Shown: in pieces, positions 2,254 through 49,539 of the stretch | How positions within the stretch are numbered: position 1 is the stretch's first letter | Layout: each line of letters starts with the position of its first letter | IMG/VR virus record: IMGVR_UViG_3300023174_000187 | Location: 1-59,318 of that record | Source of the DNA: a virus | Taxonomy: Duplodnaviria; Caudoviricetes | Strand: one strand, 5' to 3' | DNA: 59,318 nt | Position numbers and translations under genes: made by a program | The notes under the pieces: model-generated | The model's input: only the letters and a program-made list of their open reading frames with translations | Told to the model about the DNA's origin: nothing | The model's database searches: none

Positions 2254-2299
2254 CCATCTAGGCTAGTGTTCAACCCACAATAAGTCAACAGGGGGAACG

Positions 2300-22157: not shown

Positions 22158-22164
22158 CAGTAAA

Positions 22165-24216: not shown

Positions 24217-24705
24217 ATGGGAAGAAAAACTAGACTTACAGCAGAGATTCAACAACAAATTGTTTCCTCGATTAGTTCAGGCAATTGGCAAGAGGTTGCT
24301 TGTGAATATGCAGGGATTCATGTGGCAACTTACTACCGATGGTTAGAACGCGGTCAAGTTGAGATTAGTCGCCTTGAAGGGGACGAAGAAGCAGAACCGA
24401 ATGACGAGGAAACTCCATATCGCGAGTTTTGCGAGGCAGTACGGAAAGCGCAAGCGGTATCTGAGGTTCAAGCAGTAGGCTTGATTCGTAAAGCAGCGAT
24501 TGACGGGTCATGGCAAGCAGCGGGATGGTACTTGGAACGCTCTCACCCAAAGCGATGGTCAAAAGTTGATAAACTCGAACACACAGGTCGCGAAGGCGCA
24601 CCAATTCAGTTGAGTGTTTCAGTCGGAGATTTAGAAAAAGAAATCGAAGCGTTATTGGAAGGAAGCCGTGGAACTACTAGAGATGATGATGAAGGCAACG
24701 CCTGA
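24217..24705 (+). CDS. Terminase small subunit
   Basis: MGRKT.LT, HTH AGI...TYYRW, WQAAGWYLER, EHTG..G.PI. Confidence 0.85.
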   Translation: MGRKTRLTAEIQQQIVSSISSGNWQEVACEYAGIHVATYYRWLERGQVEISRLEGDEEAEPNDEETPYREFCEAVRKAQAVSEVQAVGLIRKAAIDGSWQAAGWYLERSHPKRWSKVDKLEHTGREGAPIQLSVSVGDLEKEIEALLEGSRGTTRDDDEGNA

Positions 24706-26275
24706 TGAGCGTCGCTATGTCTTATCTAAGTTAGACCCCGAAAAGCGCATTGCGCTGAAACAAATCCTTGACAATCACAAAAGTAACCCGTGGGCGCAAT
24801 ATGAAAAAGACCCAGTTGCGTTTATCGAAAAAGGATTAGGCGAAACACTTTGGTCTAAACAGCGAGAGATTCTTGTATCGCTTAGGGACAACAAAAGAAC
24901 AGCAGTCCCCGCTTGTCACGCTCCAGGAAAATCATTTATTGCAGCAAGAGCGGTTGCGTGGTGGGTTTCATCTCACCCCGCGGGAACGGCTCAAGTAGTT
25001 ACAACAGCGACAACCTTTAGACAGGTTCGTAACATCCTTTGGAATGAAGTACGCAAGGTTGCAACAAAACATAATTTGCCAGGAGAAGTTATGTCCGTCG
25101 AATGGCAATTAGCGGGCGGAATTGTTGCTTACGGACTTTCATCAGGTGCTAATAACGAGGCTTCAATTCAAGGTATCCATGCTCCCCATCTTTTAGTTGT
25201 TGTTGATGAAGCGGGTGGTATTCCCACAAGTACAGGTCAGGCACTAGAAGCCTTGATGACAGGTGACCACACTCGACTATTGGCTATTGGTAACCCAAGT
25301 ACAGATTCAGACTCAACTTGGTTCGAGCGCATTTGTCATTCAGATTTATACAATGTCATAAAGATTTCAGCCTATGACACTCCAGCATTTACGGGCGAAG
25401 AAACAGGTTGGTGTCACTCATGCCCGCCAATGGCTTCACCCCATAAAGTAGAGACACACTTAGTAGATAAAAGTTGGGTAGAAGATGTTCTCAAAGAATA
25501 CGGAGCGGAGTCGCCGTTCGCAGAAGCAAGAATCAATGCCCGATTCCCTAAGACTTTTGCCAATCGCGTTATACCTCTCTCATGGGCGGAAGAAGCGGTC
25601 AACAATGAAAGTCCTGCGGAAAGTCCTTATGTTAGGTTGGGCGTTGATATCGCTTCCGATGGTGGCGATGAAATGGTGGTGGCAAGGGCGGATGGATTCC
25701 GAGTATCAATTGTTCATAAGTCAAGTGGAGCAGAAAACCAAAACGCCGTAGATGTAGCGCGAGTAATTCTCCAAGAAATCAAAAAAGCCGAACATATCCA
25801 CGCCACTAGAAAGTTGACCGCACCAGTTGTCGTAAAGATTGACGCAATTGGTGTTGGTTGGGGCGTTACTTCATTGCTACAGACTTGGTTTCAAGAAGGT
25901 AAGCACAAATCAACAATCGTCCCAGTCAAGGTTGGCGAACGAGCAGTTGACGCAGGTAAGTTTGTAAATCAACGCGCAGAAATGTGGTGGAACGGTCGCG
26001 AGTTACTCGAATCAATAACAGATTCGCTTGGAAATGTCTCTCAACAGTTGCGCTTAGATGTAGATACTAAAACCATCGCTCAATTGGGTTCACCTGCTTA
26101 CAAGTCCGATACAAGCGGACGAATAGCAATCGAAAAGAAAACGGAAATGAAAGGTCGCGGTGTAAGTTCCCCTGACCGCGCAGAAGCAGTTTTATTGGCT
26201 ATCTATGAACCAAAGCGTCAAATGCACATGGAAATTCCTGTATCATTTGTGCAAGCGAACGAATGGAGTATGTAA
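24668..26275 (+). CDS. Terminase large subunit
   Basis: Walker A PGKS, Walker B VVVDEA, IGNP coupling motif, LGVDIA and SPDRAEA nuclease motifs. Confidence 0.95.
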   Translation: MELLEMMMKATPDERRYVLSKLDPEKRIALKQILDNHKSNPWAQYEKDPVAFIEKGLGETLWSKQREILVSLRDNKRTAVPACHAPGKSFIAARAVAWWVSSHPAGTAQVVTTATTFRQVRNILWNEVRKVATKHNLPGEVMSVEWQLAGGIVAYGLSSGANNEASIQGIHAPHLLVVVDEAGGIPTSTGQALEALMTGDHTRLLAIGNPSTDSDSTWFERICHSDLYNVIKISAYDTPAFTGEETGWCHSCPPMASPHKVETHLVDKSWVEDVLKEYGAESPFAEARINARFPKTFANRVIPLSWAEEAVNNESPAESPYVRLGVDIASDGGDEMVVARADGFRVSIVHKSSGAENQNAVDVARVILQEIKKAEHIHATRKLTAPVVVKIDAIGVGWGVTSLLQTWFQEGKHKSTIVPVKVGERAVDAGKFVNQRAEMWWNGRELLESITDSLGNVSQQLRLDVDTKTIAQLGSPAYKSDTSGRIAIEKKTEMKGRGVSSPDRAEAVLLAIYEPKRQMHMEIPVSFVQANEWSM

Positions 26276-26787: not shown

Positions 26788-26822
26788 TCTTGACAATGTA
26801 ACAAGAACGATTAGAGTACGGA

Positions 26823-26906
26823 TTACAACTAAGGCGTAGGGCTACATCTAAGTTGGTTATTTGTAAAAGACTCTCACTGACGGGGAAGCGGTGGGGGTCT
26901 TTTGCA
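26823..26906 (+). ncRNA. Candidate small RNA of about 85 nt
   Basis: TTGACA-16-TAGAGT promoter; hairpin 26826-26855; 17-bp terminator stem 26863-26905; no RBS/ORF. Confidence 0.45.
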
Positions 26907-27014
26907 TTTCTGAAAACATAGTGTCAAATCGTGCAAAACAATTGTTATGACGGCGTGTTTGCCGTTCACCCTCTCTTGTAAATGTTTGCTAAGGGCAATT
27001 CTCAAACCCCCGTT

Positions 27015-27066
27015 TGGTAGAATAGTGCTATGCGGAAAACATCCGATAGTCAAATAGTCAGGGAGG
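27015..27066 (+). promoter_or_regulatory. Early-type promoter/leader without the CRP box
   Basis: TGgTAGAAT; CGGAAAACATCCG hairpin shared with 29941; AGGGAGG. Confidence 0.6.
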
Positions 27067-27070
27067 CTAT

Positions 27071-27190
27071 ATGAACCGACAGGTAATTTGCGATATATGT
27101 AATAAAGAATGGTATCCAAAATCAGGGGGAATGGTTTACGAAAGTTTGAACCGACACATCAAAATAGAACACAGGGAGGAAACAAATTGA
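27071..27190 (+). CDS. Small C2H2 zinc-finger protein (not in ORF track)
   Basis: MNRQVICDICNKEW...SLNRHIKIEH; strong RBS. Confidence 0.7.
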   Translation: MNRQVICDICNKEWYPKSGGMVYESLNRHIKIEHREETN

Positions 27191-27822: not shown

Positions 27823-28377
27823 ATGACCACAATAGTTGCAGTCCAGTTAGATAACAAGGTGGTATTCGGCGCAGATAGTCAAGTAACAGCACCTAATGGA
27901 CGACGATTCAGTCACCCGCAGATGGTCAAAATTAGCAAGGTCGGTCAATACTTAGTTGCAGGTTCAGGTGAATGTGCGCCTTGCGATATTGCACAGCATC
28001 TTTGGATTCCACCTAAGCCACTAACCGCAGATTGGGATGACCTTTATCATTTTATGATTTCAAAAGTAGTTCCATCGTTGAAGGCTTGTTTCAAAGATAA
28101 TGAATACAAGTGGAATGAATCAGATGATGACGAAAGCAAGTTTTCATTTCTCATTGCTATTGGGGGAGAAGTTTTTGAATTAGCGGATGATATGTCTATT
28201 ACTCTTGACGAGCGTGGTTACTATGGAGTAGGAAGTGGTTCAAGTTATGCCATCGGTGCTTTGTATGCAGGAGCAACAATCGGAGAAGCACTAAAGATAG
28301 CCTCATCCAATGATGTTTATACAAGTGAGCCGTTCATGTTTCAAGAACAGGTGAAAAGAAAAAAACGCGTGGTCTAA
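27823..28377 (+). CDS. Ntn-hydrolase, proteasome-beta/HslV-like peptidase
   Basis: MTTIVAV...GADSQVT; GSGSSYAIGAL; D.YTS. Confidence 0.85.
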   Translation: MTTIVAVQLDNKVVFGADSQVTAPNGRRFSHPQMVKISKVGQYLVAGSGECAPCDIAQHLWIPPKPLTADWDDLYHFMISKVVPSLKACFKDNEYKWNESDDDESKFSFLIAIGGEVFELADDMSITLDERGYYGVGSGSSYAIGALYAGATIGEALKIASSNDVYTSEPFMFQEQVKRKKRVV

Positions 28378-28465
28378 ATCACATAAACAAATTGTCTAAC
28401 TAATTGACTTCAAGTATGCAGGTGGCATGATTTGTCTTGTCGGAATCGCCGATTCCACAGGGAGG
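28368..28465 (+). promoter_or_regulatory. Early promoter cassette 1
   Basis: CGTGG-N6-TCACA; TTGACT 28404; TGgCATGAT; hairpin GGAATC/GATTCC; AGGGAGG. Confidence 0.8.
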
Positions 28466-28470
28466 CAAAA

Positions 28471-28920
28471 ATGCAAAACGAATTACAGGTACGAATCAAT
28501 AGTTACGCAGACGCGCTAACTCAACAGTTCCACGCTAACAACGGCGAATGGGCGCAAAGACGCAAGTTCATCGCACAAACCCCAAAGGGTTCACAGAAGT
28601 ACATCCGAATCGTCGAGGATGATGGTAATGGTCGCGGAGCGTCAGTACATTGCTTCATCAACTTAGAAACAGGTGGAGTTCACAAGTCAGCCAGTTGGCA
28701 ATCACCAGCCCGAGGTCGTGACGGCAAAGTTTATCCAGCAAAGTTCAATTTGCTAGATGATGAATCATTCGCAGCGTTGCTTTACAACCTTGAAAGTTGT
28801 GGCGGGTATCTATACGCAGATTACAAAATAAGAAAACCGTTAGTTGATAACGGAGTCACATTGTTAGATTCCGCAAAGTACATGGCTTCATTCGTTCCCG
28901 AGATGGGGGAGTCAATCTAA
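28471..28920 (+). CDS. Hypothetical early protein
   Basis: Start follows the cassette RBS; KYIRIV..SVHCFI...G.V.K.ASW..PA. Confidence 0.75.
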   Translation: MQNELQVRINSYADALTQQFHANNGEWAQRRKFIAQTPKGSQKYIRIVEDDGNGRGASVHCFINLETGGVHKSASWQSPARGRDGKVYPAKFNLLDDESFAALLYNLESCGGYLYADYKIRKPLVDNGVTLLDSAKYMASFVPEMGESI

Positions 28921-29288
28921 TGAAAACAAAAATCACAGTAGGTTGGGTCGCGTTTGCCCACCAAGCAGAATCGCTCAAAGCAGCAGGTCGAATCCCCGAT
29001 GCAAAGTTGACATTTGAAACCGAGATTCCACCAGCAATGTTTGATACAGAAATTCTCGAATTGTTATTCGAGCAGACAAACCTTTATGCGGGCGATGTTT
29101 GGGAAAAACATTTCAAGGACAAGATGCCCGAGAATCGCAGTCACACCGCGCTATCAGTAGGAGATTGCGTGACTATCGAAAGAAACGAAGATAAAAGCAT
29201 TTACATTTGCTTGGATATGGGTTGGGAGTTGCTCGCGTTTAGTAATGCGTGGGTGGACGAAGTTACTCGACTCAAGGCGGTCAAATAA
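28920..29288 (+). CDS. YodL-like domain protein
   Basis: E.LF...N...P...H..LSVGD.V...GW. Confidence 0.55.
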   Translation: MKTKITVGWVAFAHQAESLKAAGRIPDAKLTFETEIPPAMFDTEILELLFEQTNLYAGDVWEKHFKDKMPENRSHTALSVGDCVTIERNEDKSIYICLDMGWELLAFSNAWVDEVTRLKAVK

Positions 29289-29651
29289 TGGCAAAGAAGC
29301 ATTGGTATTTAGTGACAATGATTGCTGAAAAAACAGTTCGCGTTTATGCAGAAGATGAACAAGATGCAAAAGATAAAGCAGATGCAAAACATCAACCATT
29401 GTGGAACGCAGAAACAGCGGATATAGAAGGAAGATGGGGAAAAAGAAATGGCTAAACCTCTAGTTAGTTCCGTCAAAGAATGGTTCGTGGAGTTCGATTC
29501 AGACTTGGTAAAGGTCGAATGGGACGGAAACGACTATTGGCGGGTAAAACCCTCAGGAAAGCGAGCGCAATACTTCTACGGAGAATCCGCATGGATGGAT
29601 GCAAGGCGGACAGCAGCGGATATTGACTTCAAAGCGTGGAGTATCGCTTGA
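29288..29651 (+). CDS. Two small hypothetical genes (29288-29455, 29448-29651)
   Basis: Translationally coupled ORFs. Confidence 0.6.
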
Positions 29652-29867
29652 TTGCGTATGTAGTAATAGGGTTAGTTCTTTTTATGGATTTTGTAGCAAT
29701 ATGTTTAGCGATTTACGGACTAGGAATGGCGAAAGGTTGGTGGGAATAATGACAATCAAACAAGTCAAGTTCGATTTGTGCGAGATATGCGAATCCAATC
29801 CAAAAGAAAACCCTGAGGGCAAATGGTGTACCTCATGCAAAGATGATTTCAAAGAAAGCGACGATTA

Positions 29868-29969
29868 GGTGACCTAAATCACACAATCATTTAGTCAAAA
29901 CATTTGACTATTTAGTTGGTGGTGGAAGAATAAGTCTTGTCGGAAAACATCCGATATTAGTCAGGGAGG
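29868..29969 (+). promoter_or_regulatory. Early promoter cassette 2
   Basis: GGTGA-N6-TCACA; TTGACT 29904; TGgAAGAAT; hairpin TCGGA/TCCGA; AGGGAGG. Confidence 0.8.
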
Positions 29970-29974
29970 CTAAG

Positions 29975-30220
29975 ATGGAAAACTCACTTCACAAGCAAGC
30001 ACTAAAAGCATATAAATCGCTAGTTTTGATTGCAGCAAAAAACAAGGCGGGCGAACTTCAATTCGCGTCAGACATTCAGGCACAAGCCTTTGCTATCTCT
30101 TACAAAGACTTGCGCGAAATGCTCGACTATGTAGCAACAGGCGACGAAGATATCGTGCGCAAGATTTACGCAAAGAAAATTGTTGAACGCTCTAAGTATT
30201 GGGTCGAAAAGGTAGCGTAA
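29975..30220 (+). CDS. Hypothetical early protein
   Basis: Follows the cassette RBS. Confidence 0.75.
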   Translation: MENSLHKQALKAYKSLVLIAAKNKAGELQFASDIQAQAFAISYKDLREMLDYVATGDEDIVRKIYAKKIVERSKYWVEKVA

Positions 30221-30870
30221 TGACAACCGATTCAATGGAGTTGATTCGCCAGTTGCAAGCGTCAATGAACGAATCACTCCATCCCGACCTAGTTCCATTC
30301 ATGGAGGATGGCGCACTAGGAAAGCAGTTGCGTCACCCGTTGGTCTATTTAGTTCCAATGTGGGATAACGGACGAGCCAATGCTTACTATGAGCAAAAGG
30401 TCAAGGATTCAAGCCAAGCGTTACAGGAAAAGCGATTCAACAGTTTCATTTATTTGCATGAACGCCCATATCGCCTAGATGCCTTCATTCAGGTAGCAGA
30501 CCAGTTGACCGACACCGAATACTGGAAGTTGTTAGGTTGCATTTGGACGGATACTGAAAACCAATGGCAGAATCTCGACAAGTGGGACGAGTTGCTCAAT
30601 AGCGACCGACCAAGCAAGAATTATTTGATGAACGAGGAGGAGGACAATTTTCTTAGGTCGCTTCCCGATAAGGTAGTTGTTTATCGCGGATGTCAAAAAG
30701 GACAGAATGAAAACGGTCTCTCTTGGTCGCTAAAGCGCGACAAAGCGGAGTTCTTCGCTAACCGACTAGGAAAGCGTGGAATCGTCTTACAAAGGACGAT
30801 AAGCAAGGAACAGATAGTCGCCGTATTTTTAGGGCGCAATGAATGGGAGGTTGTATGGAAACCAAGTTAG
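30220..30870 (+). CDS. Putative ADP-ribosyltransferase-fold protein
   Basis: VYRG, SWS..R..A..FA, EWEV (R-S-E pattern). Confidence 0.55.
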   Translation: MTTDSMELIRQLQASMNESLHPDLVPFMEDGALGKQLRHPLVYLVPMWDNGRANAYYEQKVKDSSQALQEKRFNSFIYLHERPYRLDAFIQVADQLTDTEYWKLLGCIWTDTENQWQNLDKWDELLNSDRPSKNYLMNEEEDNFLRSLPDKVVVYRGCQKGQNENGLSWSLKRDKAEFFANRLGKRGIVLQRTISKEQIVAVFLGRNEWEVVWKPS

Positions 30871-31384
30871 TAAGTGCAGTAGTAGCAGAATATGTTGAAA
30901 AGCGAGAGAAAGACCATCACTACGAAGCAGATGCAGCGCACCGCGAACCATCAGTAGCCGAGTTTTACAATCGTGAAGCGTGGAAATGGCACAACATAGG
31001 AGCAGAAATTGTTGAACACCTAAAGAAACAGGGGTTGTAATGTCCGAGTTGATACCGCTTGAATCCGAAGCAGCCGAAAAAATCTTGTCAGATATGTTTG
31101 GACGCATGGTCACATTTGGCGCAGATTCAGTCAAACCAAACAAGCCTAGTTATGAACTCCACTTCGCCATCAAAGCAGTTGTTTGGGACGACGGGTCGGT
31201 TAGTTGGGAACACGCTGGAGAAATGTATGAATCCTCTTATCCCAATGGTGTTGTTTGGGACTGCAACAAGCAAGAATGGGATTACTACCGCGAGAACAAC
31301 GAATCAATGGAGTCTAAATGCCACAATCAGATTTCAGACATGATGGCGAATATGCGGTATTGGAAAGCAGAACAAGAAAAGTGA
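30855..31384 (+). CDS. Two hypothetical genes (30855-31040, 31040-31384)
   Basis: GGGAGG RBS and TAATG coupling. Confidence 0.65.
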
Positions 31385-31388
31385 AACG

Positions 31389-31486
31389 CGTGACGCAAAT
31401 CACACAAACTTTATAGCAAAACATTTGACAACACACGCGCAGAATGGAAATGTAGGACTTGTCGGAAAACCAACGCCTAAGGGAGG
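31389..31486 (+). promoter_or_regulatory. Early promoter cassette 3
   Basis: CGTGA-N6-TCACA; TTGACA 31425; TGgAAATGT; AGGGAGG. Confidence 0.8.
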
Positions 31487-31492
31487 CAAAAA

Positions 31493-31741
31493 ATGATAGT
31501 TTCAGTTACAGGTTCAGTTCTTCATTCAATCCTAAATTCAATCCAATCTCCACGCCGAGTTCTTGATATCGGTGCAGGATTCACAAAAAGAGAGGGTGTT
31601 TACACCTTCCTTGTGAGTGGCAAAGCCTCTCGCGTTCCTTATATTCAAGGCTTGCTCAAAGAAGCGGGCTACATCATCATTTCAGACAGCGAGGAATGGT
31701 CTCGCAACGAGCATCGCTTCTATATCAAGGAGGCAGCGTAA
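31493..31741 (+). CDS. Hypothetical early protein
   Basis: Follows the cassette RBS. Confidence 0.7.
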   Translation: MIVSVTGSVLHSILNSIQSPRRVLDIGAGFTKREGVYTFLVSGKASRVPYIQGLLKEAGYIIISDSEEWSRNEHRFYIKEAA

Positions 31742-32640
31742 TGCGCACCGATATTCACCGCCCAAGTGCGCCCGAGTTTGACCCTCAGGCTTACGATTGC
31801 TACGGAGTGTTTGATTTAGCACCCGAGTTCGGAGGCGAAGCCGAGACAAAGGCTCGCGTCCAAATGGTAGCCAGCCTAGTTGATAAAGGCTACAAGTTCG
31901 GTTCAACAAATAGCGGTGGATGCGGTCATTGCGGAGCAAATCTTAGATACGCTGCTTTGATGGCTCGCGAAGATGTCAAGGAATTGATATATGTAGGCGA
32001 AACTTGCTTGGATAACCGATTCTCATTATCAAAGGAATTGTTCCAACAGTTGCGCTCGCAAGCAAAGTTGAACAAAGACCGCGAAGTGAAAGGCGTAAGA
32101 AAAGCGCAGTTCATCGCCGATAATGTAGAAGTTCAAGAACTTATCGCTTATGAAAACCAAGTAGATGCGATGCCACAATTTCTAATGTCTTTGTTATTCC
32201 AGTTGGAACAGTATGGGGAACTTAGTGCAAAGCAAGTAGCGTCCATCCGTCCAGCAATTGAACGCGACCGCGAACAAGTTGCACAAGCCAAGATTCGCGA
32301 AGCAGAACGCCAAGCCCTAATTGCTAAGGGAGTAGTTGCTCCCGAAGGTAAAGTGACCGTGGTTGGCGAAGTTATCGCGCAGAAGTGGCAGGAAAACGAT
32401 TTCGGCGGAGTAATGAAAATGTTAGTTCAAGCCGAAGAAGGTTACAAAGTTTGGGTAACTCGCCCGAATTCAATCTTCAACACAGAAGTAGGTGACAAAA
32501 TCCAATTCAATGCGACATTGACACAATCTCGCGAGGATGTTTTATTTGCTTACGGTAAATCACCAAGCAAAGCAGTGATTCTCGTAGAAGCACCAGTTGA
32601 GGGTCGCGCAATATCAATCAGGGAGGAAATAGCAAAATGA
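31741..32640 (+). CDS. Zn-knuckle plus C-terminal OB-fold-like protein
   Basis: CGHCG...GETC; VVGEV...GDKI.F.ATL. Confidence 0.65.
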   Translation: MRTDIHRPSAPEFDPQAYDCYGVFDLAPEFGGEAETKARVQMVASLVDKGYKFGSTNSGGCGHCGANLRYAALMAREDVKELIYVGETCLDNRFSLSKELFQQLRSQAKLNKDREVKGVRKAQFIADNVEVQELIAYENQVDAMPQFLMSLLFQLEQYGELSAKQVASIRPAIERDREQVAQAKIREAERQALIAKGVVAPEGKVTVVGEVIAQKWQENDFGGVMKMLVQAEEGYKVWVTRPNSIFNTEVGDKIQFNATLTQSREDVLFAYGKSPSKAVILVEAPVEGRAISIREEIAK

Positions 32641-33895
32641 CAATGCAATGGGACGAATACCTAAAGGTTCGCCAGTTTTATCAGACGCGTGGGCGCGAAG
32701 AACTAGAAAAAGGCAACATCGCAGAGTGCGATTACATGGTCGGTGTAGTGCGAGGTCTTGACCTTGCAATGGGCGTGTCATACGAGGTAAATAAGGAGGC
32801 AATCAAGTGAGTGACTTCATTACACCCGAGGACGAGCAGGAACTAGCCTCATTAGAAGTCCTATGGCGCGAAACCATCACCTCTATGGAAAAGGAGTTGA
32901 ACGATGCCTCAATTGAAACTCTTGATTGATGTTCCTGAAAGTAAAGACCAAGAAACTGTGATTGACTACCTCAATTGCGTCGCGCTTTGTAAATTGGAAG
33001 AAGATTTGCATGAAATCACAGGTTGGGAATGGGTGCGTAGTGACGAAGTATGTTAGTTGGGCGCAGGTCTATCTAGGTAGTCAGCGACATAAGTGCGATT
33101 GCAAGAAGGGTCTCGCAGTATTTGTAGTAAATGGCAGGTCAGATAATCTCACCCGAACCAAGACCTCTTATGCGTGTCTCGTTTGCATAGGGGATGTTCT
33201 ATTGAGACAGGAGTGGAAATGAGTGATGAAAAGCGTCTAGTTATGGCATTTCGTGGACAGCAATTGGACATCTTGTATGGTCCAACAGATTTAGTCGTTG
33301 AAGTGAGAGACTATGACCACGATTTGCCCGAAGATGACACAAGGGTATTGAAAGACATCAATGGTTCGACATTTCGAGCCTTCATATTCAAAGCCGACAA
33401 AGAAGTGGAAGTAGCAGATGAGTAAGCACCATGCAGTTCTTATGTACGACTCGGAAACAAAGCAATGGTCGCACGATGTTGAGACAGAAAACGCAAAATT
33501 CCCCGATGGCACAATTTGGGACGATGCAAAAGAAGAATGGTATTCGGGCTATCTAGGAGATGGCGGATATGACCCAATTGATGACAGAATTATGGATTAT
33601 CTTCCCCACGGAATAGATGCCTTGAATATGCTTGACGGTGTGAGCCGAGGCGAAGAACTCAAACTAAAGGAGAGTGAAGATGATTGAAGTTGTAGTAACT
33701 TTGCTTGTTGTTGCGCAAGCAGCAACAGCCTACAAGTTGTGGTTGGCTAAAAAGGGAATCTTTGCTTTGTTTGGAATCATCAGTTCATTGTTAGATGTCA
33801 TGACAACCATGAACAAGATAGAGATATTGAAAAAAATGGAAACCAATGTCACCGATATAGAACAGGAATTCCGACGAATCATTGATTCGCTTTAG
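32637..33895 (+). CDS. Run of small coupled hypothetical genes (e.g. 32637-32810, 32807-32929, 33219-33425, 33418-33687, 33674-33895)
   Basis: Overlapping stop/start codons with GGAG RBSs; the last has a TM segment. Confidence 0.6.
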
Positions 33896-33998
33896 TGTGG
33901 CGCAAATCACAAAAACTTTATAGCAAAACATTTGACAATCGCTCAGGTGAATGGAAATGTAGTACTTGTCAACGAAACGCCCGTTTCGGACAGGGAGG
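33896..33998 (+). promoter_or_regulatory. Early promoter cassette 4
   Basis: TGTGG-N6-TCACA; TTGACA 33932; TGgAAATGT; hairpin CGAAACG/CGTTTCG; AGGGAGG. Confidence 0.8.
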
Positions 33999-34005
33999 CT
34001 TCAAA

Positions 34006-34428
34006 GTGAAATCAGTATCAGTTCAATTCGAGTCAGCAATGAAAGAAATTCGTAAAAACAAGGTAATGGCTCGTCGTAATGTTAGTTCTTGTTGCCGTTC
34101 ATGCGTGGATTTGAAAGTTGCGGACGACCAAGCAATCATTTGGCACTTTGGCGGTCAAGGTGGTCGTTTCGAAGTTGCAGCAGATGGCGCATACGAGCCA
34201 GGTTGGTCAACAACCAAAGTTGACGGTGTTTACTTCAACCACAACGCTATTGCAGGAACAGAAAAAGCAAAGATAGTCGAAGAAATCTTCGCAAAATACG
34301 AAATCGTCATTGATTGGGATGGAAGCGAATCAACTTGCATTTGGGTGGACTTCAAAGCAACAGCAAAAAACTTCAAGCACGAAGCAGGGATTATCTCAAT
34401 GAATACTCCAGATATGGTAATGGCGTAA
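34006..34428 (+). CDS. Hypothetical early protein
   Basis: GTG start after the cassette RBS; CCRSC; W.GS....I.V. Confidence 0.7.
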   Translation: MKSVSVQFESAMKEIRKNKVMARRNVSSCCRSCVDLKVADDQAIIWHFGGQGGRFEVAADGAYEPGWSTTKVDGVYFNHNAIAGTEKAKIVEEIFAKYEIVIDWDGSESTCIWVDFKATAKNFKHEAGIISMNTPDMVMA

Positions 34429-34504
34429 TGGTTTGCCCATATTGCAAAGGTAAAAAACCTTATTCAAAAATTTGCAAAACTTGTAAGATAGGAAAGAGGA
34501 AGTA

Positions 34505-35531
34505 ATGGCACACAGCAGATGTGAATGTTGTCCATTTGGAAACCATGATTACGGAATTCGAGTAGATAAGCGTCCAGCGGACATTGACTTGCTAATGACA
34601 GAAGGATTGCCAGCCACAACTTATGCGTGTGGATATATGGCGTTTGCAGGAACAGTCATCATGGTTGACAGATACACAAGCGGTAAGAAAAAAGGTCTAG
34701 TAAAGCGAATCACTATCGCAGATGCAGAACCGACTCCAACAGGAGATTGGGTCACAAGTTCAGACCCGAAGTATTGGGAAATATACGCAGTTGAAGAATT
34801 GACAGTATGCACTGGTCGCGATTGTGAGAAGTATCGAGATAAGTGTCCGTATTGCTCGGGCGAAAGGTTTTACTTCAAGAATCTCAACAGCGAGAATAAA
34901 CGAGTAGAAGGTTCATGGGGACGCGCCAGTTATGCGCAGATTGGACTAGGTTACCGAGAAGAATATAGAAACTATCAATCAGAACAGTACTTGTCAGGTT
35001 AGGGGGAAAATGTTAGAAACCTTAGAAGGCGAAGTTCGAGGGAAATCAGGGTCAGTTCACTATGCAGACCAAGAAATTCAACGACTGCACGAAAAGTATG
35101 GTTTGCCTTATCAAGCAGAAGGCGAAATTCAGTTAGCCTATGCGCTCGCGCACACGGGAGCATTGGGAATTCTAGTTGTAAGGCTAGACAGCGGGGAAAC
35201 GCTTTATGGACATAGTTATGACCATGCGTACACTCCAACAGAAATAGCAGGAATCAATCGCTCGAAGCGCGTAGTAGATGCGCTTTGGTTACCAAAATAG
35301 GAGAAGTAAATGGCATATGTAGTTATCGGGTCACACAAAGAAACAGGAACATTCAAGGTGGTTGGTTCGTTTTACCAAACAGCCCGAGCAGACCAAGCAG
35401 TGAAAGTATTGTCAGTTGCCGAACCTAATTGGGAATTCAGTTACAGCGATTTAGAAGATGGTGTTAGCGCATTGCAAAAAGCAAGAAAAGAAATACGACA
35501 AGAAAAGAGAAAACAAAAAAATGCTAGATAA
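34505..35531 (+). CDS. Three hypothetical genes (34505-35002 Cys-rich, 35010-35300, 35310-35531)
   Basis: Each ORF has an RBS. Confidence 0.6.
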
Positions 35532-36324
35532 GCCAAAAATTTTGCTCACCAGCAATTCCGAATTGCGTGAAGATGGAATCATGAATTGGACACTGCCAGC
35601 GTTTGCGGTCAAGTTAGATGATGGCAGAAATATAAATGTTTGCCCACAAGCAGGGGCTTGCGCAACGGTTTGTTATGCAAGAAATGGCACTTACTTGTTT
35701 CCAAATGTTATTGGTAAGCACAAGAAAAATCTTCAATTCATACTCGACGACCTTGAAGGATGGAAAGAAGCCATGTTGTTAGAGTTGAACAAAAAGAAAA
35801 TGCGACCAAGCGGAGAACCACGAAGCGTTCAAGGAGTTGACCCTGATTTGACCGACCCTTTCATAAAAGAATGGTTGGCAACAGGCGGTAAAACAGTCCG
35901 TATCCACGATTCAGGTGATTTCTTCTCAGATGAATATACGATTGCGTGGATGAAGATTGCAGAACAGGTTCCCGATGTTTTGTTTTATGCTTACACAAAG
36001 GAAGTAACCCGATTTCGCAATATAGTTGAAGGTAAAGCCCCAGTAAACTTTCGCTGGTTGTACTCAATGGGCGGAAAAGAAGATTACTTGGTCAAGTTAG
36101 AAGAAGAACGCCACGCAGATGTATTTCTCAGTTGGGATTCTATGGTCGAAGCGGGTTATGTTGACCAGTCAGCGTCAGACCTTCAAGCAATTCTTCTCCC
36201 AAGCGTCAAGATTGGTATTCCAGCAAACAACATTCCACATTTCAAAAAGAAAATGAATGGTGGCACATTCGCAAGTCTTCAAAAAGACCGTGACGATGCA
36301 AAAGCAAGAAAGTTAGAAGCGTGA
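35521..36324 (+). CDS. GP88-like (radical-SAM-like Fe-S) protein
   Basis: CPQAGACATVCYA, RIHDSGDFFS, FYAYTK. Confidence 0.75.
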   Translation: MLDKPKILLTSNSELREDGIMNWTLPAFAVKLDDGRNINVCPQAGACATVCYARNGTYLFPNVIGKHKKNLQFILDDLEGWKEAMLLELNKKKMRPSGEPRSVQGVDPDLTDPFIKEWLATGGKTVRIHDSGDFFSDEYTIAWMKIAEQVPDVLFYAYTKEVTRFRNIVEGKAPVNFRWLYSMGGKEDYLVKLEEERHADVFLSWDSMVEAGYVDQSASDLQAILLPSVKIGIPANNIPHFKKKMNGGTFASLQKDRDDAKARKLEA

Positions 36325-36424
36325 CGCAAATCACACAAACTTTATAGCAAAACATTTGACAACAAGTTTCGTGAATGGAAATGTATGTCTTGTAAACGGA
36401 ATCGCCCGATTCCACAAAGGGAGG
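36320..36424 (+). promoter_or_regulatory. Early promoter cassette 5
   Basis: 46 bp identical to cassette 3; TTGACA 36356; hairpin GGAATCG/CGATTCC; AGGGAGG. Confidence 0.85.
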
Positions 36425-36431
36425 CAAGAAA

Positions 36432-36987
36432 ATGGAAATCACAAATTGCGAACACAGTTGGATTTACTTCAAAGAAGGTATTGGAACTCAGTACCGTTGC
36501 ACCAGTTGTAACAAGGGATTCTTCGACGCAGAATCAGTAGTGACACCCCGCAAAGGTTGGGTCGAGGTATTCAGCCTCAAGGAAATGACTTACACATTGA
36601 TTGACCCAAAGGTGGAGGTCAAGTAATGAAAACTCTTAGCGAAGCAACAGCAAAGGAAATCCTAGACAGGATTGATTACTTAGACCGCGAGTTTTGGAAG
36701 GTCACTCCAGCCGAGCGTCCATTTGTAGCCGAAGCAATCTCAATACTTGTTCAGGCTCACCAAAGAAAACTAAAGGAGGTCAAGTAATGTCAGTTAGATA
36801 CGGAGATTGTCAGAAAAAACATTCTGAACGATTCATCAAGCAAGCCATCCGTGGATGGGCAAAAGAGCGCGAAAGTTTCGATGGTATCAAGCGTTCAAAA
36901 GCAGAAATAGAAGAAATTGTAAAAGACCAGTTTTCTTCAATCACTGGTGAGGATGCGTGTAACTGGCTTTCATGCGAGAAGAATTAG
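36432..36987 (+). CDS. Small hypothetical genes (36432-36626 Zn-ribbon-like; two more to 36987)
   Basis: GGAGG RBSs and TAATG coupling. Confidence 0.6.
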
Positions 36988-37094
36988 TGTGGTACAAATC
37001 ACACAAACTTTTAGCAAATAAACTTTACATCAAGTTTGATGGCTGAAAGGATTGTATTTGTAAACGAAATCATCCGATTTCACAAACAGGGAGG
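36988..37094 (+). promoter_or_regulatory. Early promoter cassette 6
   Basis: TGTGG-N6-TCACA; TTTACA 37024; TGaAAGGAT; hairpin GAAATC/GATTTC; AGGGAGG. Confidence 0.8.
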
Positions 37095-37101
37095 CAACAA
37101 A

Positions 37102-38649
37102 ATGGACATCGCAGGATACAGAGTTAGATTCACAAACTGGAAGAACGGACAAGATGAGTTTTTCTTTCAGAACAAGGAAGATGCTAAAAACTTTTCAGCC
37201 AAGTACGAGGCTTACAGATACAAAGCCGTAATTGAAACAATTTACTTTCAAGAGGTTGTTGCGTAATGTTTGAATACAAAATCTTTTACCCAGTCATAGG
37301 TGGGGGTAAGTATCACACTTGCGACAGCATCACCAGCGTTGCTACTTGCGGGAACTTCGTAGTTGACCAGCGCAACGAGGTTTCAATTCATGTGCAAGGC
37401 GATGCAGATTACAGCAAAGTTCATCCAATGGTATGTAAGCGTTGCTTACTAAAGAAATAGGGAGGCAGTAAATGTTAGTTCGAGTTCAAGCAAAAAACGA
37501 TTCAAATGGAAATCCGCGCCGAGGTTGGATTCAGTTTTCAAGCGACGGTAGTTTTCTTCAATTCATTGACGAGGGCTATCAAGGCAGGGGCGCAATTGCT
37601 GAATTTGTCAAATGGGGCGAGGCAGACACAATCGCCATCACTATCGAGGCAAGCGAATACAAGCGATTCAAAAAACTAGGGGAGGCAAAGTGAACGAGTT
37701 CGAGAAAGCAAGAACGGAACTAATTGCTAGTTTCATAGAAACAGGTTACACAGAAGAACAAGCGACCGAGACGGTCAACAAATTGTTTGGAGTTATCAAA
37801 TGACAAAGCGTCCGTGGTACGAGCAATTGACAACCCGAGGTTGGGTAGTTTTGATTGGATTCGGAGTAGCAGTTATTTTCGGATTGATGATGTGGTGGGG
37901 AGACAGAATGGTTATTTGCGATTGGCGCGGTGGCTATGAACCATGCAAAATCGAACGATTCGGCGATGTAGTAGATGGGTGGAGTAAATGAGTTACGAAC
38001 GCAAAATTGGTAAGTTTTACATTTCAGCAGGTTGGAAAAATGGATTCGGAATCGGTTTCTCAATAGACAAGTACACAATGTTTGTTGAGATTGGGATTAT
38101 TTGGGTCGGATTGGAGTATTGATGGGCAGTAGTTATATTGCTGGATTCTTAGACCACTTAGGTGATGGAGATTTAGCCCTCAAACAAGCGGTGACAATCC
38201 AGTTGAAAGGCAATCATTTCCCCGCAATACATAGCGATTGGATAGAAGTTGCTATCAAAGCAATCAAAGTCGTCGAAGCAGACCCCGAAGGCGATTCGGG
38301 ATGGGGCGATATAAAACGCCCTGACAAATTTGTCAAAGACGGTAAGACCGATATAAGCGTTTCTGAGGTTATGGATGGACTGCACCTTTGGGACTTAGTG
38401 AGGGTAGAACGCTAATTGTCAGACCGTGTTGGTAAGTTCATCAAACAAAGAAATCGCGAACCAAGATGGGTGATTGTTCATAAGTTCAAGAAAACAGATT
38501 GGGGCGAAATCATTCTTTGGTCGAAGGCTTTAGGTTGGACACTCCAACCTGAACACGATGTTTTCAAAGATGAGCAAAAAGGTATAGTCCCGCTTCCCGA
38601 CGACGGGAAATGGGTCAAAGAGGACGAAGTAATGGAGCGAATCAAATGA
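37102..38649 (+). CDS. Run of small hypothetical genes (37102-37266, 37266-37460, 37472-37693, 37800-37991 TM, ~38122-38415, 38416-38649)
   Basis: RBSs and coupled starts. Confidence 0.6.
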
Positions 38650-39416
38650 CAGAAATAACAATGCCAGCGCATATCTCGTTTAGCAGTATGAATGATTGGC
38701 TTGATTGCGGTCATCGCTATTACTTGGGACGAATGACAGAGGTTGAAGATTTACCACAGATGATGTTTATTGGTGGCAAGGTTGTTCACTCAGCCAGTGA
38801 AACTTATGACCGATTCGGTGGAGACTTAGACAAAGTTTGGAACGATGAATGGACAAAGGCTCTTGACGGAGTTTTCGCAAAAGGTTTTTCGGTAGATGAC
38901 ATAAAAATCAATATCGGAAATGAAGATGTGTCATGGTGGTACGAGAACGGGCGCAAGATGCTCGACCGCCATGTCCGATTCAGCACTGAAAACTCAGTGT
39001 TGATGCTCCCCGATGGAACGCCAGCCATTGAACTCGATTTATCATGCGATGTAAATGGTGTTGAAGTCAAAATGTACGCAGACCGCCTGACGACCTCCCT
39101 TGTCAATGGCGAGGTTAGCGTTACTGACATCAAGACAGGACGGAAAAGTCCAACTAATCCGCTCCAGTTGGCGTTTTATCGGTACGGAGTAAAGAAAAAA
39201 TATGGAATTGACCTTGATTACGGTCAGTACTGGATGGTTCGCACTGGCAAAATCGTGACAAAGCCACTCGCACCATTCACCAATTCGTTGATTGAAGGTT
39301 TAGTCGCAAAGTTTGACCATGCGCGTAAGTCTTTAGCGTTTGTACCGAATGTTGGCTCTTGTACATGGTGTTCATTCAAACCCAACTGCGAGTTCGGACG
39401 CGATATGGACTTTTAG
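38646..39416 (+). CDS. PD-(D/E)xK RecB/Cas4-like exonuclease
   Basis: S.S.....DC, G..VH, E, DR, DIKTG, QLAFY, CTWC....NC. Confidence 0.85.
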   Translation: MTEITMPAHISFSSMNDWLDCGHRYYLGRMTEVEDLPQMMFIGGKVVHSASETYDRFGGDLDKVWNDEWTKALDGVFAKGFSVDDIKINIGNEDVSWWYENGRKMLDRHVRFSTENSVLMLPDGTPAIELDLSCDVNGVEVKMYADRLTTSLVNGEVSVTDIKTGRKSPTNPLQLAFYRYGVKKKYGIDLDYGQYWMVRTGKIVTKPLAPFTNSLIEGLVAKFDHARKSLAFVPNVGSCTWCSFKPNCEFGRDMDF

Positions 39417-39432
39417 GTTGTACGATTTGTAT

Positions 39433-39678
39433 ATGTCACGATTTGTTATGGTTGCTGATTCAGATACAGGTAAAATCGTTATTTGGGATGGCAAAAAGCA
39501 GATGTTCTCATGTTTATTCGGGGAACGCGCCGAAGGCGGATGGGGCATAAGCGTTGCGCAGGAAATCATGGTCATGGCAGAACAGCCTAAACCTCATAAG
39601 ATTTTGTATGCTCTCCATGATTTCTTGTGTGATGTTTCTCAAACTCAACCAGTTGAGCCGATTCCTGTCTCAGTATAA
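39433..39678 (+). CDS. Hypothetical protein, probably leaderless
   Basis: TACGAT-6nt-ATG. Confidence 0.55.
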   Translation: MSRFVMVADSDTGKIVIWDGKKQMFSCLFGERAEGGWGISVAQEIMVMAEQPKPHKILYALHDFLCDVSQTQPVEPIPVSV

Positions 39679-39754
39679 AAACTAAACCCCCAGTGTGTCG
39701 GGTTGCAAGAATTGTTCATTTGTTCTACCCTCAGTTTAGTCGAAGGAGGAAGAA

Positions 39755-39994
39755 ATGGCTCTAACCCTAATGACCCAAGCACAAGTCTTGGACAAGTATG
39801 CGACTATGCCCGTAGAACACAAGGAAGCATTGATTGAAGTAGCGTCAAATTATCTCTTTGATATGGCGAACGCAATCAAAGTTCCTTTCAAGAATGTTGA
39901 CCAGCATGACCGTATGTTCAAGGCGTTGGATTTCTTAGCGCAAGGTTGGACAATCGAAAATGCAATGTCGGCTCAATGGAAATACCTCGGTTAG
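39755..39994 (+). CDS. Hypothetical protein
   Basis: GTGTC, TTGCAA-17-TACCCT promoter, AAGGAGG RBS. Confidence 0.75.
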   Translation: MALTLMTQAQVLDKYATMPVEHKEALIEVASNYLFDMANAIKVPFKNVDQHDRMFKALDFLAQGWTIENAMSAQWKYLG

Positions 39995-40092
39995 GTGACA
40001 TAAATCACAAAAATACTTTGCCGAAATACTTCAAAACTTTTGCAATAAAGGTAATGTAGTACCTGTAACGGGGAAACCCACTAACAGGGAGG
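39994..40092 (+). promoter_or_regulatory. Early promoter cassette 7
   Basis: GGTGA-N6-TCACA; TTCAAA 40030; TAATGT; GGG-AAA-CCC hairpin; AGGGAGG. Confidence 0.7.
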
Positions 40093-40098
40093 CACAAA

Positions 40099-40443
40099 AT
40101 GACTTCAATGGCAGCAAAGCGCGGTCACAAGTTCATCACTAAAGAAATCGAAAAAGCGTTACCACCGCTTTACTCGCAAGAAAATGTCAGCGACCCAATT
40201 GTCGTCGCTAAGTGGTTCAGTCCATATTCAAATTGGCGTTGGTTCGCCATCGAGTTCGACGGCGTAGATACATTCTTCGGATTGGTTCAAGGGTTCGAGG
40301 TAGAACTCGGAAACTTCTCAAAAGCAGAAATGGAAACCGCAGTATTTCGCGGAATAGTTCCAGCGGTCGAGCGCGACCTTTCTTGGCAGCCTAAGAAATT
40401 GAGCGAAGTCCGCAAGTCCATCGAAGAACACAACTTCGCATAA
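40099..40443 (+). CDS. DUF2958-like protein
   Basis: K.F.P...W.W...E....FFGLV.G.E.ELG.FS..E...ERDL.W.P. Confidence 0.8.
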   Translation: MTSMAAKRGHKFITKEIEKALPPLYSQENVSDPIVVAKWFSPYSNWRWFAIEFDGVDTFFGLVQGFEVELGNFSKAEMETAVFRGIVPAVERDLSWQPKKLSEVRKSIEEHNFA

Positions 40444-41564
40444 TGGAGCAAATGGAAAAATTGTACGACGAGTTGACGGACGAGCATGGTAAACATCAGT
40501 TGTCGCTCAGTTGGGACACCAAGTCAATTCTCACACCAGCAGGGTATAAAAAAATTATTGACCCTGACAAAGATTGTTTTGAGTATGACGGCTACCGAAT
40601 TTGGTGGTATCACGCCGAGAACCTCAAACACCCCGACACCCCAGTAGTGGTCATCTCTTGGACAAGCAATTACCGCGAAGATGATTGGGACACGAACGAA
40701 GAAGAAGTTGATGCAACCGCCGAGGACATCGCTGATTTCTTGAAGAACTTAGAAGGTGGCTATGAACCCGATAATGGGTTGCCTGACCGACTGGAGGAGA
40801 TAGGGTGAGTGTTTCTATCTCTTATGACTCAGGTTGGCGCACAGCCCGTTTCAGCCGTCATTTGCAGGTGGTCTTTGACAATCAAGTTTGGGATGTCACG
40901 GTCTATGTAGGAGGTCTTGGTATCCCTGACGGAGCAGATGTTTTCTTAGATGGCAATATGGTCATGGTCATCCCTGCGGAGATATTGGATTTCATCGCAG
41001 AACAACAAGAAATGAAGCCAAAGTTTGAAGAACCAAAGTCGCGCAAGTCAGACCCAGTTACCTCTCGCCTAGCAGCAGATGGTATGAAAATGCGGGTCAA
41101 CTCAACAAGGCACAAGTTGTTGATGGCGCACTACTCCGACCGTAATGGTCTAACAGACGAGGAGGCAGCGGTTCATGCTTGCCTTCCCCTAACATCAGAA
41201 TATGCCACACGCTGTTCCGAGTTGGAACGAGCAGGGCTAATAGCCAGTATGCCGACACACCGTACAGGCTCATCAGGTCAACTCCGAGTTGTGAGGCGTA
41301 TCACACAATTAGGCGTAATTTCAGCAGAAAATATTTGCAAACAAGCGTAAGGGAGATAAGATGGACAAAATATTCAAAATAAAGGTGTACGAAGATGGTC
41401 AGGAGGTGCATGAACACAAGTACAATAATCTTGGGCAAGCCATTGAAGATTATGCGCGGTATAGAGACCGCGGAATGGCTAAACAGGAAAGGTTAGTTGC
41501 CCTTATCAGTCCGAATGGCGAAGTAGTCGTCAAAAAGTCCCTAAGGAATCTCCACTCAATCTAA
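40443..41564 (+). CDS. Three genes: 40443-40808 acidic, 40805-41350 wHTH, 41361-41564 unknown
   Basis: RKSDP.TS..AA...GLTDEE...RCSELERAGLI in the second gene. Confidence 0.65.
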
Positions 41565-42185: not shown

Positions 42186-42473
42186 GTGCCAGCACCCACC
42201 GATTACCCGTACTTTGACGGAAGCCAAATATGCGCAAGCGTTGATGGTGAATTGTGGTTCAGCGACACTCCGACAGGTAGGCGAACTGCCATCAATCTAT
42301 GCAACCAGTGTCCGTTTCAGGCAGAATGTCTTGAATACGCGCTTCATTGGAGCGTGGAAGGAATTTGGGGCGGGACAACCCCAAAGATAAGAAAAGCAAT
42401 AAGAAAAAAACGCAAAATCAGACCGAAGCCAATCGTGTTTGATTTTCCTAGCCAAAGGACTCAAAATGAGTAA
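42186..42473 (+). CDS. whiB: WhiB family transcription factor
   Basis: C...D.ELWF...C..CP....CLEYAL....GIWGGTT...R. Confidence 0.92.
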   Translation: MPAPTDYPYFDGSQICASVDGELWFSDTPTGRRTAINLCNQCPFQAECLEYALHWSVEGIWGGTTPKIRKAIRKKRKIRPKPIVFDFPSQRTQNE

Positions 42474-49471: not shown

Positions 49472-49539
49472 GTGTCTTAGAGGGTTCAACCTTCAAGTTT
49501 GATGTTATTCTGCTCACATAGTTTGAATTAGGAGACCCA

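Follow-up and report, generated by a model that had tools for sequence, protein, structure and literature searches.

Where a phage repeats a single operator at many of its promoters, the reader is usually a phage protein, as is the case for the conserved inverted repeats of phiC31, the stoperators of L5 and the MotA boxes of T4, and cluster K phages carry a conserved motif that is linked to the ribosome site and has an inverted repeat upstream of it. In Bacillus phage phi29, the host regulator Spo0A represses the early promoters. These Spo0A sites are described as allowing suppression of the lytic cycle (PMC2731898). T4-type PeSL cassettes, which consist of a sigma-70-like promoter and a stem-loop, are reported to lie scattered in a hyperplastic block whose small genes are non-essential and to mediate modular shuffling (Arbiol et al. 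2010, PMC2839356). On the host side, the CRP1 site of Mycobacterium tuberculosis whiB1 is described as activating, is centred at -58.5 before a -35 and an extended -10 element, and matches 7 of the 8 defined bases of the mycobacterial CRP consensus NGTGNNANNNNNCACA (Stapleton et al. 2010, PMC2844151). Here, we describe seven copies of a CRP-like box, each part of a promoter cassette, in the IMG/VR virus record IMGVR_UViG_3300023174_000187 (Caudoviricetes), which was analysed in its entirety (59,318 bp, estimated to be 98% complete; henceforth called the window). The boxes may be host CRP/GlxR sites giving class I-type activation of seven sigma-A promoters, a leading reading on which we are evenly divided.

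The box has the form nGTGr-N3-AAATCACA and is present in seven copies in the window, all on the plus strand. The pattern GTGRNNNAAATCACA gave 7 matches against 0.05 expected, a number that none of 100 shuffles reached. In an alignment of 180 bp around the boxes, each box formed the 5′ end of a homologous cassette of about 105-115 bp, which runs from the 16-bp box through an A/T-rich stretch of 20 bp with AAAAC(A)T at its end to the -35, a 16-17 nt spacer and the -10. Downstream of these come yTGTm, which is conserved, then a short hairpin and the invariant GGGAGGC, with the start codon 4-6 nt further on. The seven cassettes are:

28368-28473, plus strand: cassette 1; box 28368-28383 (CGTGGTCTAAATCACA), -35 TTGACT (28404-28409), TGG and CATGAT (28426-28431), hairpin GGAATC/GATTCC, GGGAGGC (28460-28466), ATG at 28471.
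29868-29977, plus strand: cassette 2; box 29868-29883 (GGTGACCTAAATCACA), -35 TTGACT (29904-29909), TGG and AAGAAT (29926-29931), hairpin, GGGAGGC (29964-29970), ATG at 29975.
31389-31495, plus strand: cassette 3; box 31389-31404 (CGTGACGCAAATCACA), -35 TTGACA (31425-31430), TGG and AAATGT (31448-31453), weak hairpin, GGGAGGC (31481-31487), ATG at 31493.
33896-34008, plus strand: cassette 4; box 33896-33911 (TGTGGCGCAAATCACA), -35 TTGACA (33932-33937), TGG and AAATGT (33955-33960), hairpin CGAAAC/GTTTCG, GGGAGGC (33993-33999), GTG at 34006.
36320-36434, plus strand: cassette 5; box 36320-36335 (CGTGACGCAAATCACA), -35 TTGACA (36356-36361), TGG and AAATGT (36379-36384), hairpin GGAATC/GATTCC, GGGAGGC (36419-36425), ATG at 36432.
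36988-37104, plus strand: cassette 6; box 36988-37003 (TGTGGTACAAATCACA), -35 TTTACA (37024-37029), TGA and AAGGAT (37047-37052), hairpin GAAATC/GATTTC, GGGAGGC (37089-37095), ATG at 37102.
39994-40101, plus strand: cassette 7; box 39994-40009 (GGTGACATAAATCACA), poor -35 TTCAAA (40030-40035), AGG and TAATGT (40052-40057), hairpin GGG/CCC, GGGAGGC (40087-40093), ATG at 40099.

A cassette profile recovered the seven copies via nhmmer with E-values of 4e-33 to 9e-21 and gave one further match in the window, which is weak and box-less (22082-22174, E-value 0.06). The first-pass annotation of this DNA had listed the seven boxes, and a pattern scan returned each of them at exactly the same coordinates, on the same strand and with the same sequence; its distance of 36 bp from box start to -35 start held in 7 of 7 cassettes, and six -10 elements are TG-extended and lack the first T while the seventh is good and follows a poor -35, just as it had described. 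The homology of the cassettes, with their hairpin and GGGAGGC, was not part of that annotation. As the copies share ancestry, the 36-bp spacing within one genome does not amount to seven independent observations. Two other identities of the box were tried and rejected: as an RNA hairpin or terminator, the plus strand offers only a 4-bp stem with no T-run after it, and as a DasR/GntR-type site, GTGGTCTA of cassette 1 resembles a dre half, a resemblance that the other six boxes do not keep.

The -35 hexamers are TTGACT (twice), TTGACA (three times), TTTACA and TTCAAA, with spacers to the -10 of, in this order, 16, 16, 17, 17, 17, 17 and 16 nt (manual count). Six cassettes carry TGn followed by nAnnnT (CATGAT, AAGAAT, AAATGT three times, AAGGAT), in which A at -11 and T at -7 are kept and T at -12 is absent; the seventh (AGG-TAATGT) has no TG, a poor -35 and a better -10. 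All elements of a sigma-70/sigma-A extended -10 promoter (-35, 16-18 bp spacer, TGn, A2, T6) are hence present in six of the seven. A generic promoter scanner detected only two and missed the other five because their -10 elements are weak. The stretch between box and -35 is A/T-rich, and AAA at -43 to -41 is invariant or nearly so.

Two forms of the mycobacterial CRP motif served for comparison, NGTGNNANNNNNCACA (PMC2844151) and (C/T)GTG(A/G)-N6-(T/C)CAC(G/A) (PMC5758884). Of the 8 defined bases of the former, five boxes match 7 and two match all 8. G2, T3, G4, C13, A14, C15 and A16 are matched in 7/7 boxes and A7 in 2/7; C, T or G stands at position 1 and A or G at position 5, and these left-half variants are largely those published for mycobacterial CRP. 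The boxes start 58-59 bp before the -10 hexamer, and if the latter spans -12 to -7, their centre would lie at -62.5 (16-nt spacers) or -63.5 (17-nt spacers) from a predicted transcription start. Class I CRP sites centre near -61.5, -71.5, -81.5 or -91.5 and share their helix face with RNA polymerase. As at whiB1 CRP1, an actinobacterial CRP-type site would stand at a class I-like place upstream of an extended -10 promoter; unlike the phage, whiB1 is a single promoter of the chromosome that has a further site, a repressing one, at -37.5, and a footprint and in vitro transcription are shown for it (PMC2844151), whereas the phage has seven tandem copies with a predicted centre at about -62.5/-63.5 and no second site.

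Three perfect palindromes of the form TGTGA-N6-TCACA stand outside the cassettes:

5829-5844: TGTGACCCCAATCACA, inside the exonuclease gene 5449-6666, with no promoter after it.
41290-41305: TGTGAGGCGTATCACA, at the 3′ end of the open reading frame (ORF) 40805-41350.
50106-50121: TGTGACTGGTATCACA, inside the virion structural gene 49540-52323.

Three such sites compare with 0.13 expected, and none of 100 shuffles reached this number; each of the three is inside an ORF, with no promoter after it. The palindrome at 41290 is perfect in two relatives (L112 and L117), has one mismatch in L118, is not kept in L116, and is under coding constraint. Across the window, nGTGr-N6-TCACA has 13 matches versus 1 for the reversed control, and the bare GTG-N8-CAC shows no further enrichment (15 versus 13 expected), with 10 of its 15 matches being the seven boxes and the three palindromes.

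The phage family is large in IMG/VR, where 267 stretches encode a relative of the terminase, and boxed cassettes are confined to the closest clade, with a portal identity of 84-87% (L097/L116, L098, L118 and L114). The window has seven, L097/L116 three (plus one cut by the contig end), L098 one, L118 two and L114 one, and a phylogenetic footprint was derived from 14 boxed cassettes of five contigs (the window, L097, L098, L118, L114). Invariant over the 14 are T3, G4, positions 11-16 (ATCACA), A18, A19, A31, T37 and T38, and G2 is kept in 12; position 7 and the ten bases upstream of the box carry 0.1-0.7 bit (position 7, 0.16 bit). The cassette-7 orthologues (n = 4) read GGTGA-CATAAA-TCACA, TATGA-CCTATA-TCACA, TGTGA-CTTGTA-TCACA and TGTGA-TCTAAA-TCACA, i.e., the half-sites are held, N6 differs in all four, and two are perfect TGTGA-N6-TCACA. 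A survey of the spacing in related phages, which had been put forward as a check, found it conserved, with 36 bp from box to -35 in 13 of the 14 cassettes and 37 bp in one; by contrast, the distance from -10 to ribosome site has a spread of 9 nt within the window and of about 10 nt over the 14 (manual count). The cassette-7 box of three relatives is displaced toward the -10 by exactly 10 bp (offset 48 versus 58), a shift of one helical turn that keeps the helical face. Together, the footprint, the spacing and the extra palindromes argue for a sequence-specific, face-dependent protein contact rather than mere shared descent.

In 1.49 Mb of related loci, sites with at most one mismatch are concentrated in the closest clade, and nine one-mismatch sites fall in six more distant loci (L013, L065, L071, L080, L090, L164). 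The cassette had no BLAST match in 50,697 cultured phage records, and pattern scans of IMG/VR returned only contigs already known and chance singletons. A promoter of the family's older, box-less type heads the operon just upstream of cassette 1:

27005-27073, plus strand: box-less promoter; AACCCCCGTTTGG and TAGAAT (27018-27023), hairpin, AGGGAGGC, ATG at 27071.

The same type (27005-27023 in the window) occurs in the relative L046 and in Arthrobacter phage Ottawa (65% GC), both of which have repeated promoter-hairpin-ribosome-site cassettes before small genes, with AACCCC(C)GT...TAnnnT extended -10 promoters and no CRP-like box. The box is hence a lineage-specific addition to an older cassette design. 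In Ottawa (L009, 8.6-15.2 kb), at least eight intergenic gaps contain TAGACA...AACCCC(C/T)(G/A)TTAGGTTAG, a GC-rich hairpin and GAGGAG.

A small hairpin stands just 5′ of the ribosome site in 14/14 cassettes of the five contigs, with differing stems (including GGAATC/GATTCC, CGAAAC/GTTTCG, GAAATC/GATTTC, GGG/CCC, GATCGGA/TCCGATC, GGGATT/AATCCC and GGGCT/AGCCC) to which an outer TGT/ACA stem is often added. Individual z-scores against shuffles range from -0.9 to -4.6, and the stem changes are compensatory in this hairpin, which lies between the predicted transcript start and the ribosome site. It has no T-run and is a hairpin of the 5′ untranslated region (UTR), not a terminator; it may serve as a 5′-terminal stabiliser or as a protein or RNase site.

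The record has 44% GC and carries nearly all of its genes on the plus strand. The landmarks are:

5449-6666: exonuclease gene.
24668-26275: terminase large subunit.
42186-42473, plus strand: WhiB-family gene (48 bits), in the last part of the cassette-7 operon.
43074-44345: portal.
49540-52323: virion structural gene.
53693-54670: major capsid.

The WhiB gene likely marks an actinobacterial host. By capsid, the nearest cultured relatives are Arthrobacter phages Ottawa and Kharcho (62%) and a Microbacterium phage (52%), and the region is present in lake-water and freshwater metagenome runs of two studies, one of which is possibly the source. Two isolated Planktophila phages are reported with 44.8% GC versus 46.5% for their host (PMC10202952). 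Given this similarity of phage and host GC and the freshwater runs, it is reasonable, though unproven, to assume as host a freshwater actinobacterium of low GC, consistent with WhiB and 44% GC. A Bacillus-like Firmicute host, first suggested by the AGGGAGG ribosome site and the GC content, was dropped because of the WhiB gene and the Arthrobacter and Microbacterium capsid relatives. A WhiB query against genome contigs gave distant matches only (Herbidospora 38%, a Jatrophihabitans metagenome-assembled genome 44%, and chance matches in Psychrobacter) and did not pin the host. The C-terminal tail of the phage WhiB is strongly basic (KIRKAIRKKRKIRPKP); a WhiB7-like contact by this protein at the invariant A-tract directly upstream of the -35 is conceivable.

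To place the box on the host side, 401 genomes of the class Actinomycetes were sampled, of which 29 with at most 1.5 Mb were taken as stand-ins for streamlined freshwater hosts (23 of the 29 have 44-49% GC around crp). The tally includes nine genomes flagged as unpublished (G274, G384, G018, G047, G041, G043, G035, G026, G315), none of which is among the 29 and on none of which an individual claim rests. TGTGA-N6-TCACA was matched in 319 of the 401 genomes, usually far above the reversed control. A Herbidospora genome has 17 sites versus 0 in the control, 6 of them with AAATCACA as in the phage, and 5 of the 17 lie in one 10-kb cluster of paralogous genes (L180, G012:C4:568000-585000), which looks like a chromosomal array of candidate CRP-site promoters. 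Four of these five sites (not 581639) are near GC-rich terminator-like hairpins and upstream of same-strand ORFs of about 400-430 aa.

All 29 small genomes encode a CRP orthologue, an open frame of 230-250 aa with GASRETVNKALADF and the helix RETVNK; the Met-started ORF has 227 aa in the one that was read (L195). Over its full length, this protein can be aligned with M. tuberculosis CRP (3D0S, E-value 6.5e-77) and GlxR (4BYY, 1e-72), its recognition helix is that of M. tuberculosis CRP, its helix-turn-helix (HTH) differs at two flanking positions only, and its cyclic AMP (cAMP) phosphate-binding cassette is intact. Since 29/29 small genomes keep the orthologue, a CRP of matching specificity is expected in any plausible host. 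Recurrent sites that were tried as members of a regulon in the small genomes were rejected: GTGGTTCGTGTCACA is the start of a conserved gene, another recurrent site is intragenic, and GGTGATTGCAGTCAGA near crp is coding sequence.

The first-pass annotation had placed the region under host CRP/GlxR control and had read this as gating by cAMP, i.e., by the energy state of the host. Its first half stands as the leading hypothesis, with consensus matches of 7-8 out of 8, a class I-like distance and the RETVNK protein in all small genomes; its second half found no support. Cyclase domains of class III (PF00211) or CYTH type (PF01928) were found in 0 of the 29 small genomes, and PF00211 was found in the control Corynebacterium glutamicum and in two of five larger genomes of the same sample. 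M. tuberculosis CRP is reported to bind most sites without cAMP, with a gain of only about two-fold when cAMP is present (PMC5758884, PMC2844151). Because of these two points, control by cAMP or energy state does not follow even if CRP binds; cAMP as input is rather unlikely, and the wait-or-lyse switch that had been proposed is speculation without support.

Several points weigh against the boxes being CRP sites. The cassettes are paralogous and all 14 come from one narrow clade, so that part of the conservation is shared descent. The proximal side AAATCACAnAAA is far more conserved than the distal GTGr, and two relatives have ATG for GTG, an asymmetry that a symmetric dimer alone does not predict. 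None of five complete relatives with 60% terminase identity carries the box, and in the three box-less relatives fetched in full there is no TGTGA-N6-TCACA with at most one mismatch; the box-less relatives also lack nearly all genes of the block that the cassettes head. By manual count, the box centre lies about 2-3 bp further from the -35 than in the Escherichia coli lac promoter, and in three relatives the predicted centre is near -52.5, which is not canonical class I. Among the 23 small genomes of low GC, matches to the relaxed motif are fewer than those to its reversed control (111 versus 270; below the control in 22 of the 23) and perfect sites total two; the scarcity could be avoidance of spurious sites, and a CRP regulon using the box motif was not demonstrable in these genomes. 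Finally, the WhiB gene, 44% GC and freshwater runs point no further than to a low-GC freshwater actinobacterium as candidate host.

An alternative that we regard as possible, without expecting it, is that a dimeric DNA-binding protein encoded by the phage, or a non-CRP host protein, uses the box as operator, either activating the promoters as a delayed-early class or repressing them, the CRP likeness of the box being coincidental. Repeated one-operator arrays in phages are usually read by phage proteins, and the boxes share with the phiC31 conserved inverted repeats, the L5 stoperators and the cluster K start-associated sequences one motif, in one orientation, in short intergenic gaps. The phiC31 and L5 motifs are bound by the repressor of a temperate phage, however, and none of these arrays resembles a host global-regulator site; in the window, no integrase or resolvase domain was found, and there is no repressor-type HTH among the matches listed (25 of 31 families). 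The absence of an integrase agrees with the first-pass annotation, as does the absence of a CRP-family gene, for cNMP_binding has no match in the window and HTH_Crp_2 a single sub-threshold one (17.6 bits), which lies inside the HTH_36/DnaD-like protein. A phage-encoded binder would suit the cascade-like layout, with the box-less older-type promoter directly upstream of the boxed cassettes, and the asymmetric conservation of AAATCACAnAAA, which extends past the CRP half-site. Room for it exists, as most ORFs of the block have no known fold; yet among 49 ORFs of the block and its flanks (26.3-43.1 kb) the Pfam scan detected no HTH family other than WhiB. The box is limited to the window's clade, which has its own replication module including the winged-helix HTH_36 protein (16445-17191), and this protein is absent from the three fully fetched box-less relatives; but it has a G39P-like helicase loader as neighbour and the look of an origin-binding protein, its recognition helix is SSRNVQR and not RETV, and the co-occurrence of box and replication module in the clade is a single evolutionary event. 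A 92-aa HTH_23 protein also occurs in box-less relatives (36-44% identity). A binder of this kind would also have to agree with CRP sites by chance in three respects, namely the GTG-N8-CAC core, the degeneracies that are allowed and a span of 16 bp.

The cassettes also behave as joints of recombination. In L097, a cassette-1-like copy is followed by a homologue of window 36626-36787, the order of modules differing at cassettes, and in contigs of run X5, 28432 is joined with 36398, 36359 (backwards) with 29923, 33936 with 37041 and 36260 with 40067, in or next to cassettes; joins at such likeness often reflect repeats or other organisms, and a reshuffled relative would look alike. As in PeSL, small repeated promoter and stem-loop cassettes lie among small genes (seven copies in 12 kb), with relatives whose module order differs at the cassettes, as expected from recombination shuffling; the PeSL stem-loops are described as terminators (PMC2839356), whereas that of the phage belongs to the 5′ UTR, where it directly precedes the ribosome site, and a CRP-like operator is added upstream. 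It is improbable, in our view, that the box binds no regulator at all and that the cassettes are recent duplicates kept as homology patches, or that -70 to -38 is an UP-element-like bent A-rich region. Their part in recombination and the A/T-rich stretch with its (near-)invariant AAA would fit. Homology leaves unexplained, however, why ATCACA and TG are invariant in 14/14 while positions 1 and 5-9 and the upstream 10 bp drift, and why indels are excluded between box and -35 yet tolerated downstream; the three extra perfect palindromes stand outside any cassette, and related phages including Ottawa have the cassette without the box, which is thus an added module. Least probable of all, and hardly to be expected, is that host CRP binds and represses the block when active, or that the sites are decoys titrating CRP: ten distinct sites in 59 kb versus about one per 290 kb in the low-GC small actinobacterial genomes, three of them intragenic and away from promoters, and core promoters that with a good -35 and TGn may need no help would suit it, but a centre near -62 with strict spacing is the geometry of activation and not of occlusion, and decoys would need no fixed promoter spacing.

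On the leading reading, the seven paralogous cassettes would transcribe a lineage-specific block of about 45 ORFs from left to right, each providing a housekeeping-sigma promoter followed by a 5′-terminal stem-loop and a strong ribosome site. A CRP dimer bound about three helical turns upstream of the -35 would contact the alpha-subunit C-terminal domain of RNA polymerase, as at M. tuberculosis PwhiB1, and would compensate the imperfect -10 elements; the cassettes also double as homology patches for the exchange of gene modules between related phages. We infer the transcription start, CRP binding, the sign of its effect, the timing of expression and the host. The full picture, in which a virulent phage of streamlined freshwater actinobacteria wires an accessory block of about 45 genes to CRP via seven class I sites and the intragenic sites, in which the CRP signal is not classical cAMP catabolite control and in which the dense sites might drain the CRP pool, is doubtful. 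It would resemble phi29, classed as lytic with host global-regulator sites that tie development to the state of the host (PMC2731898), and would differ in that the phage geometry suggests activation, the regulator would be CRP and the host an actinobacterium. In the literature covered, which excludes most subscription journals, we found no report of CRP/GlxR sites organising phage promoters, nor of repeated promoter cassettes in actinobacteriophages. If the promoters are driven by host CRP, a lytic phage would clearly tie a large accessory gene set to a global regulator of the host by promoter architecture alone, in abundant freshwater actinobacteria of uncultivated type whose regulation is almost unknown. 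The cassette is also a portable, defined promoter-UTR unit for low-GC actinobacteria, and its exchange is an instance of PeSL-like shuffling outside the T4 group. As actinobacterial CRPs share the recognition helix, the CRP reading is directly testable.

The block itself, which extends from 28.4 to about 43 kb, has the terminase on one side and the portal on the other and comprises about 45 small ORFs. The Pfam scan of the 49 ORFs gave SSB, a PD-(D/E)XK nuclease, GP88, DUF7717, DUF2958, SLT, CHAP and WhiB, with the CHAP ORF just upstream of the block; most block ORFs have no known family, and PHROGs held no function for nine of ten conserved block proteins. The terms early region and host-takeover genes, by which the block had been called, accordingly stay inferences, in keeping with SSB, the nuclease and WhiB and going beyond the many ORFs without a family. 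A query with the PD-(D/E)XK nuclease found no relatives among viral contigs, and tRNA and Rfam scans of the window returned nothing.

Outside the block, a TET-associated glycosyltransferase, a methyltransferase and MgsA-C, HTH_36/DnaD-like and G39P-like proteins are encoded at 15.8-22.8 kb. Two auxiliary regions (710-3049 and 20696-24169) contain a minus-strand sulfotransferase beside APS kinase, minus-strand genes for a WbqC-like protein and a PIG-L deacetylase, and a TET-associated glycosyltransferase with ParB-like proteins and a methyltransferase, which suggests DNA hypermodification and sulfur or cell-surface sugar functions. Freshwater phages encoding cysC have been reported (PMC10914622). 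The WbqC-like protein had no match in the 401 genomes.

A palindrome GCGTG-N14-CACGC (22077-22100) abuts a TTTACA-17-TATAGT promoter (22102-22130) with a AAGGGAGGC ribosome site, and the relative L119 has a similar GGCGT-N15-ACGCC before TTGACG at about 2155-2190. No ATG, GTG or TTG follows this ribosome site at the usual distance; read by eye, the frame looks open as far as the MgsA_C gene (listed ATG at 22282) when entered at an ATT near 22165, and this ATT is a possible rare start codon. Ahead of the 27005 promoter, a non-coding stretch of 280 bp (26790-27070) opens with the best consensus promoter of the region (TTGACA-16-TAGAGT, 10/12); it has no Rfam match and may be a leader or small RNA. 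The first gene after the box-less promoter is a 38-aa ORF (27071-27187) with CxxC...HxxxxxH and no Pfam family, which is conserved in the relatives G008 (60% over 35 aa) and G002 (58%) and may encode a small zinc-binding regulator. Lastly, a near-identical TTTGnTGTTATyCTGCTCACA is present at 49495-49520, after a terminator-like hairpin near 49445, and at 52352-52377, a short way upstream of the structural genes that start at 49540 and 52379/52394, respectively; both copies resemble extended -10 promoters of late genes (TGTTATTCT, TGTTATCCT).

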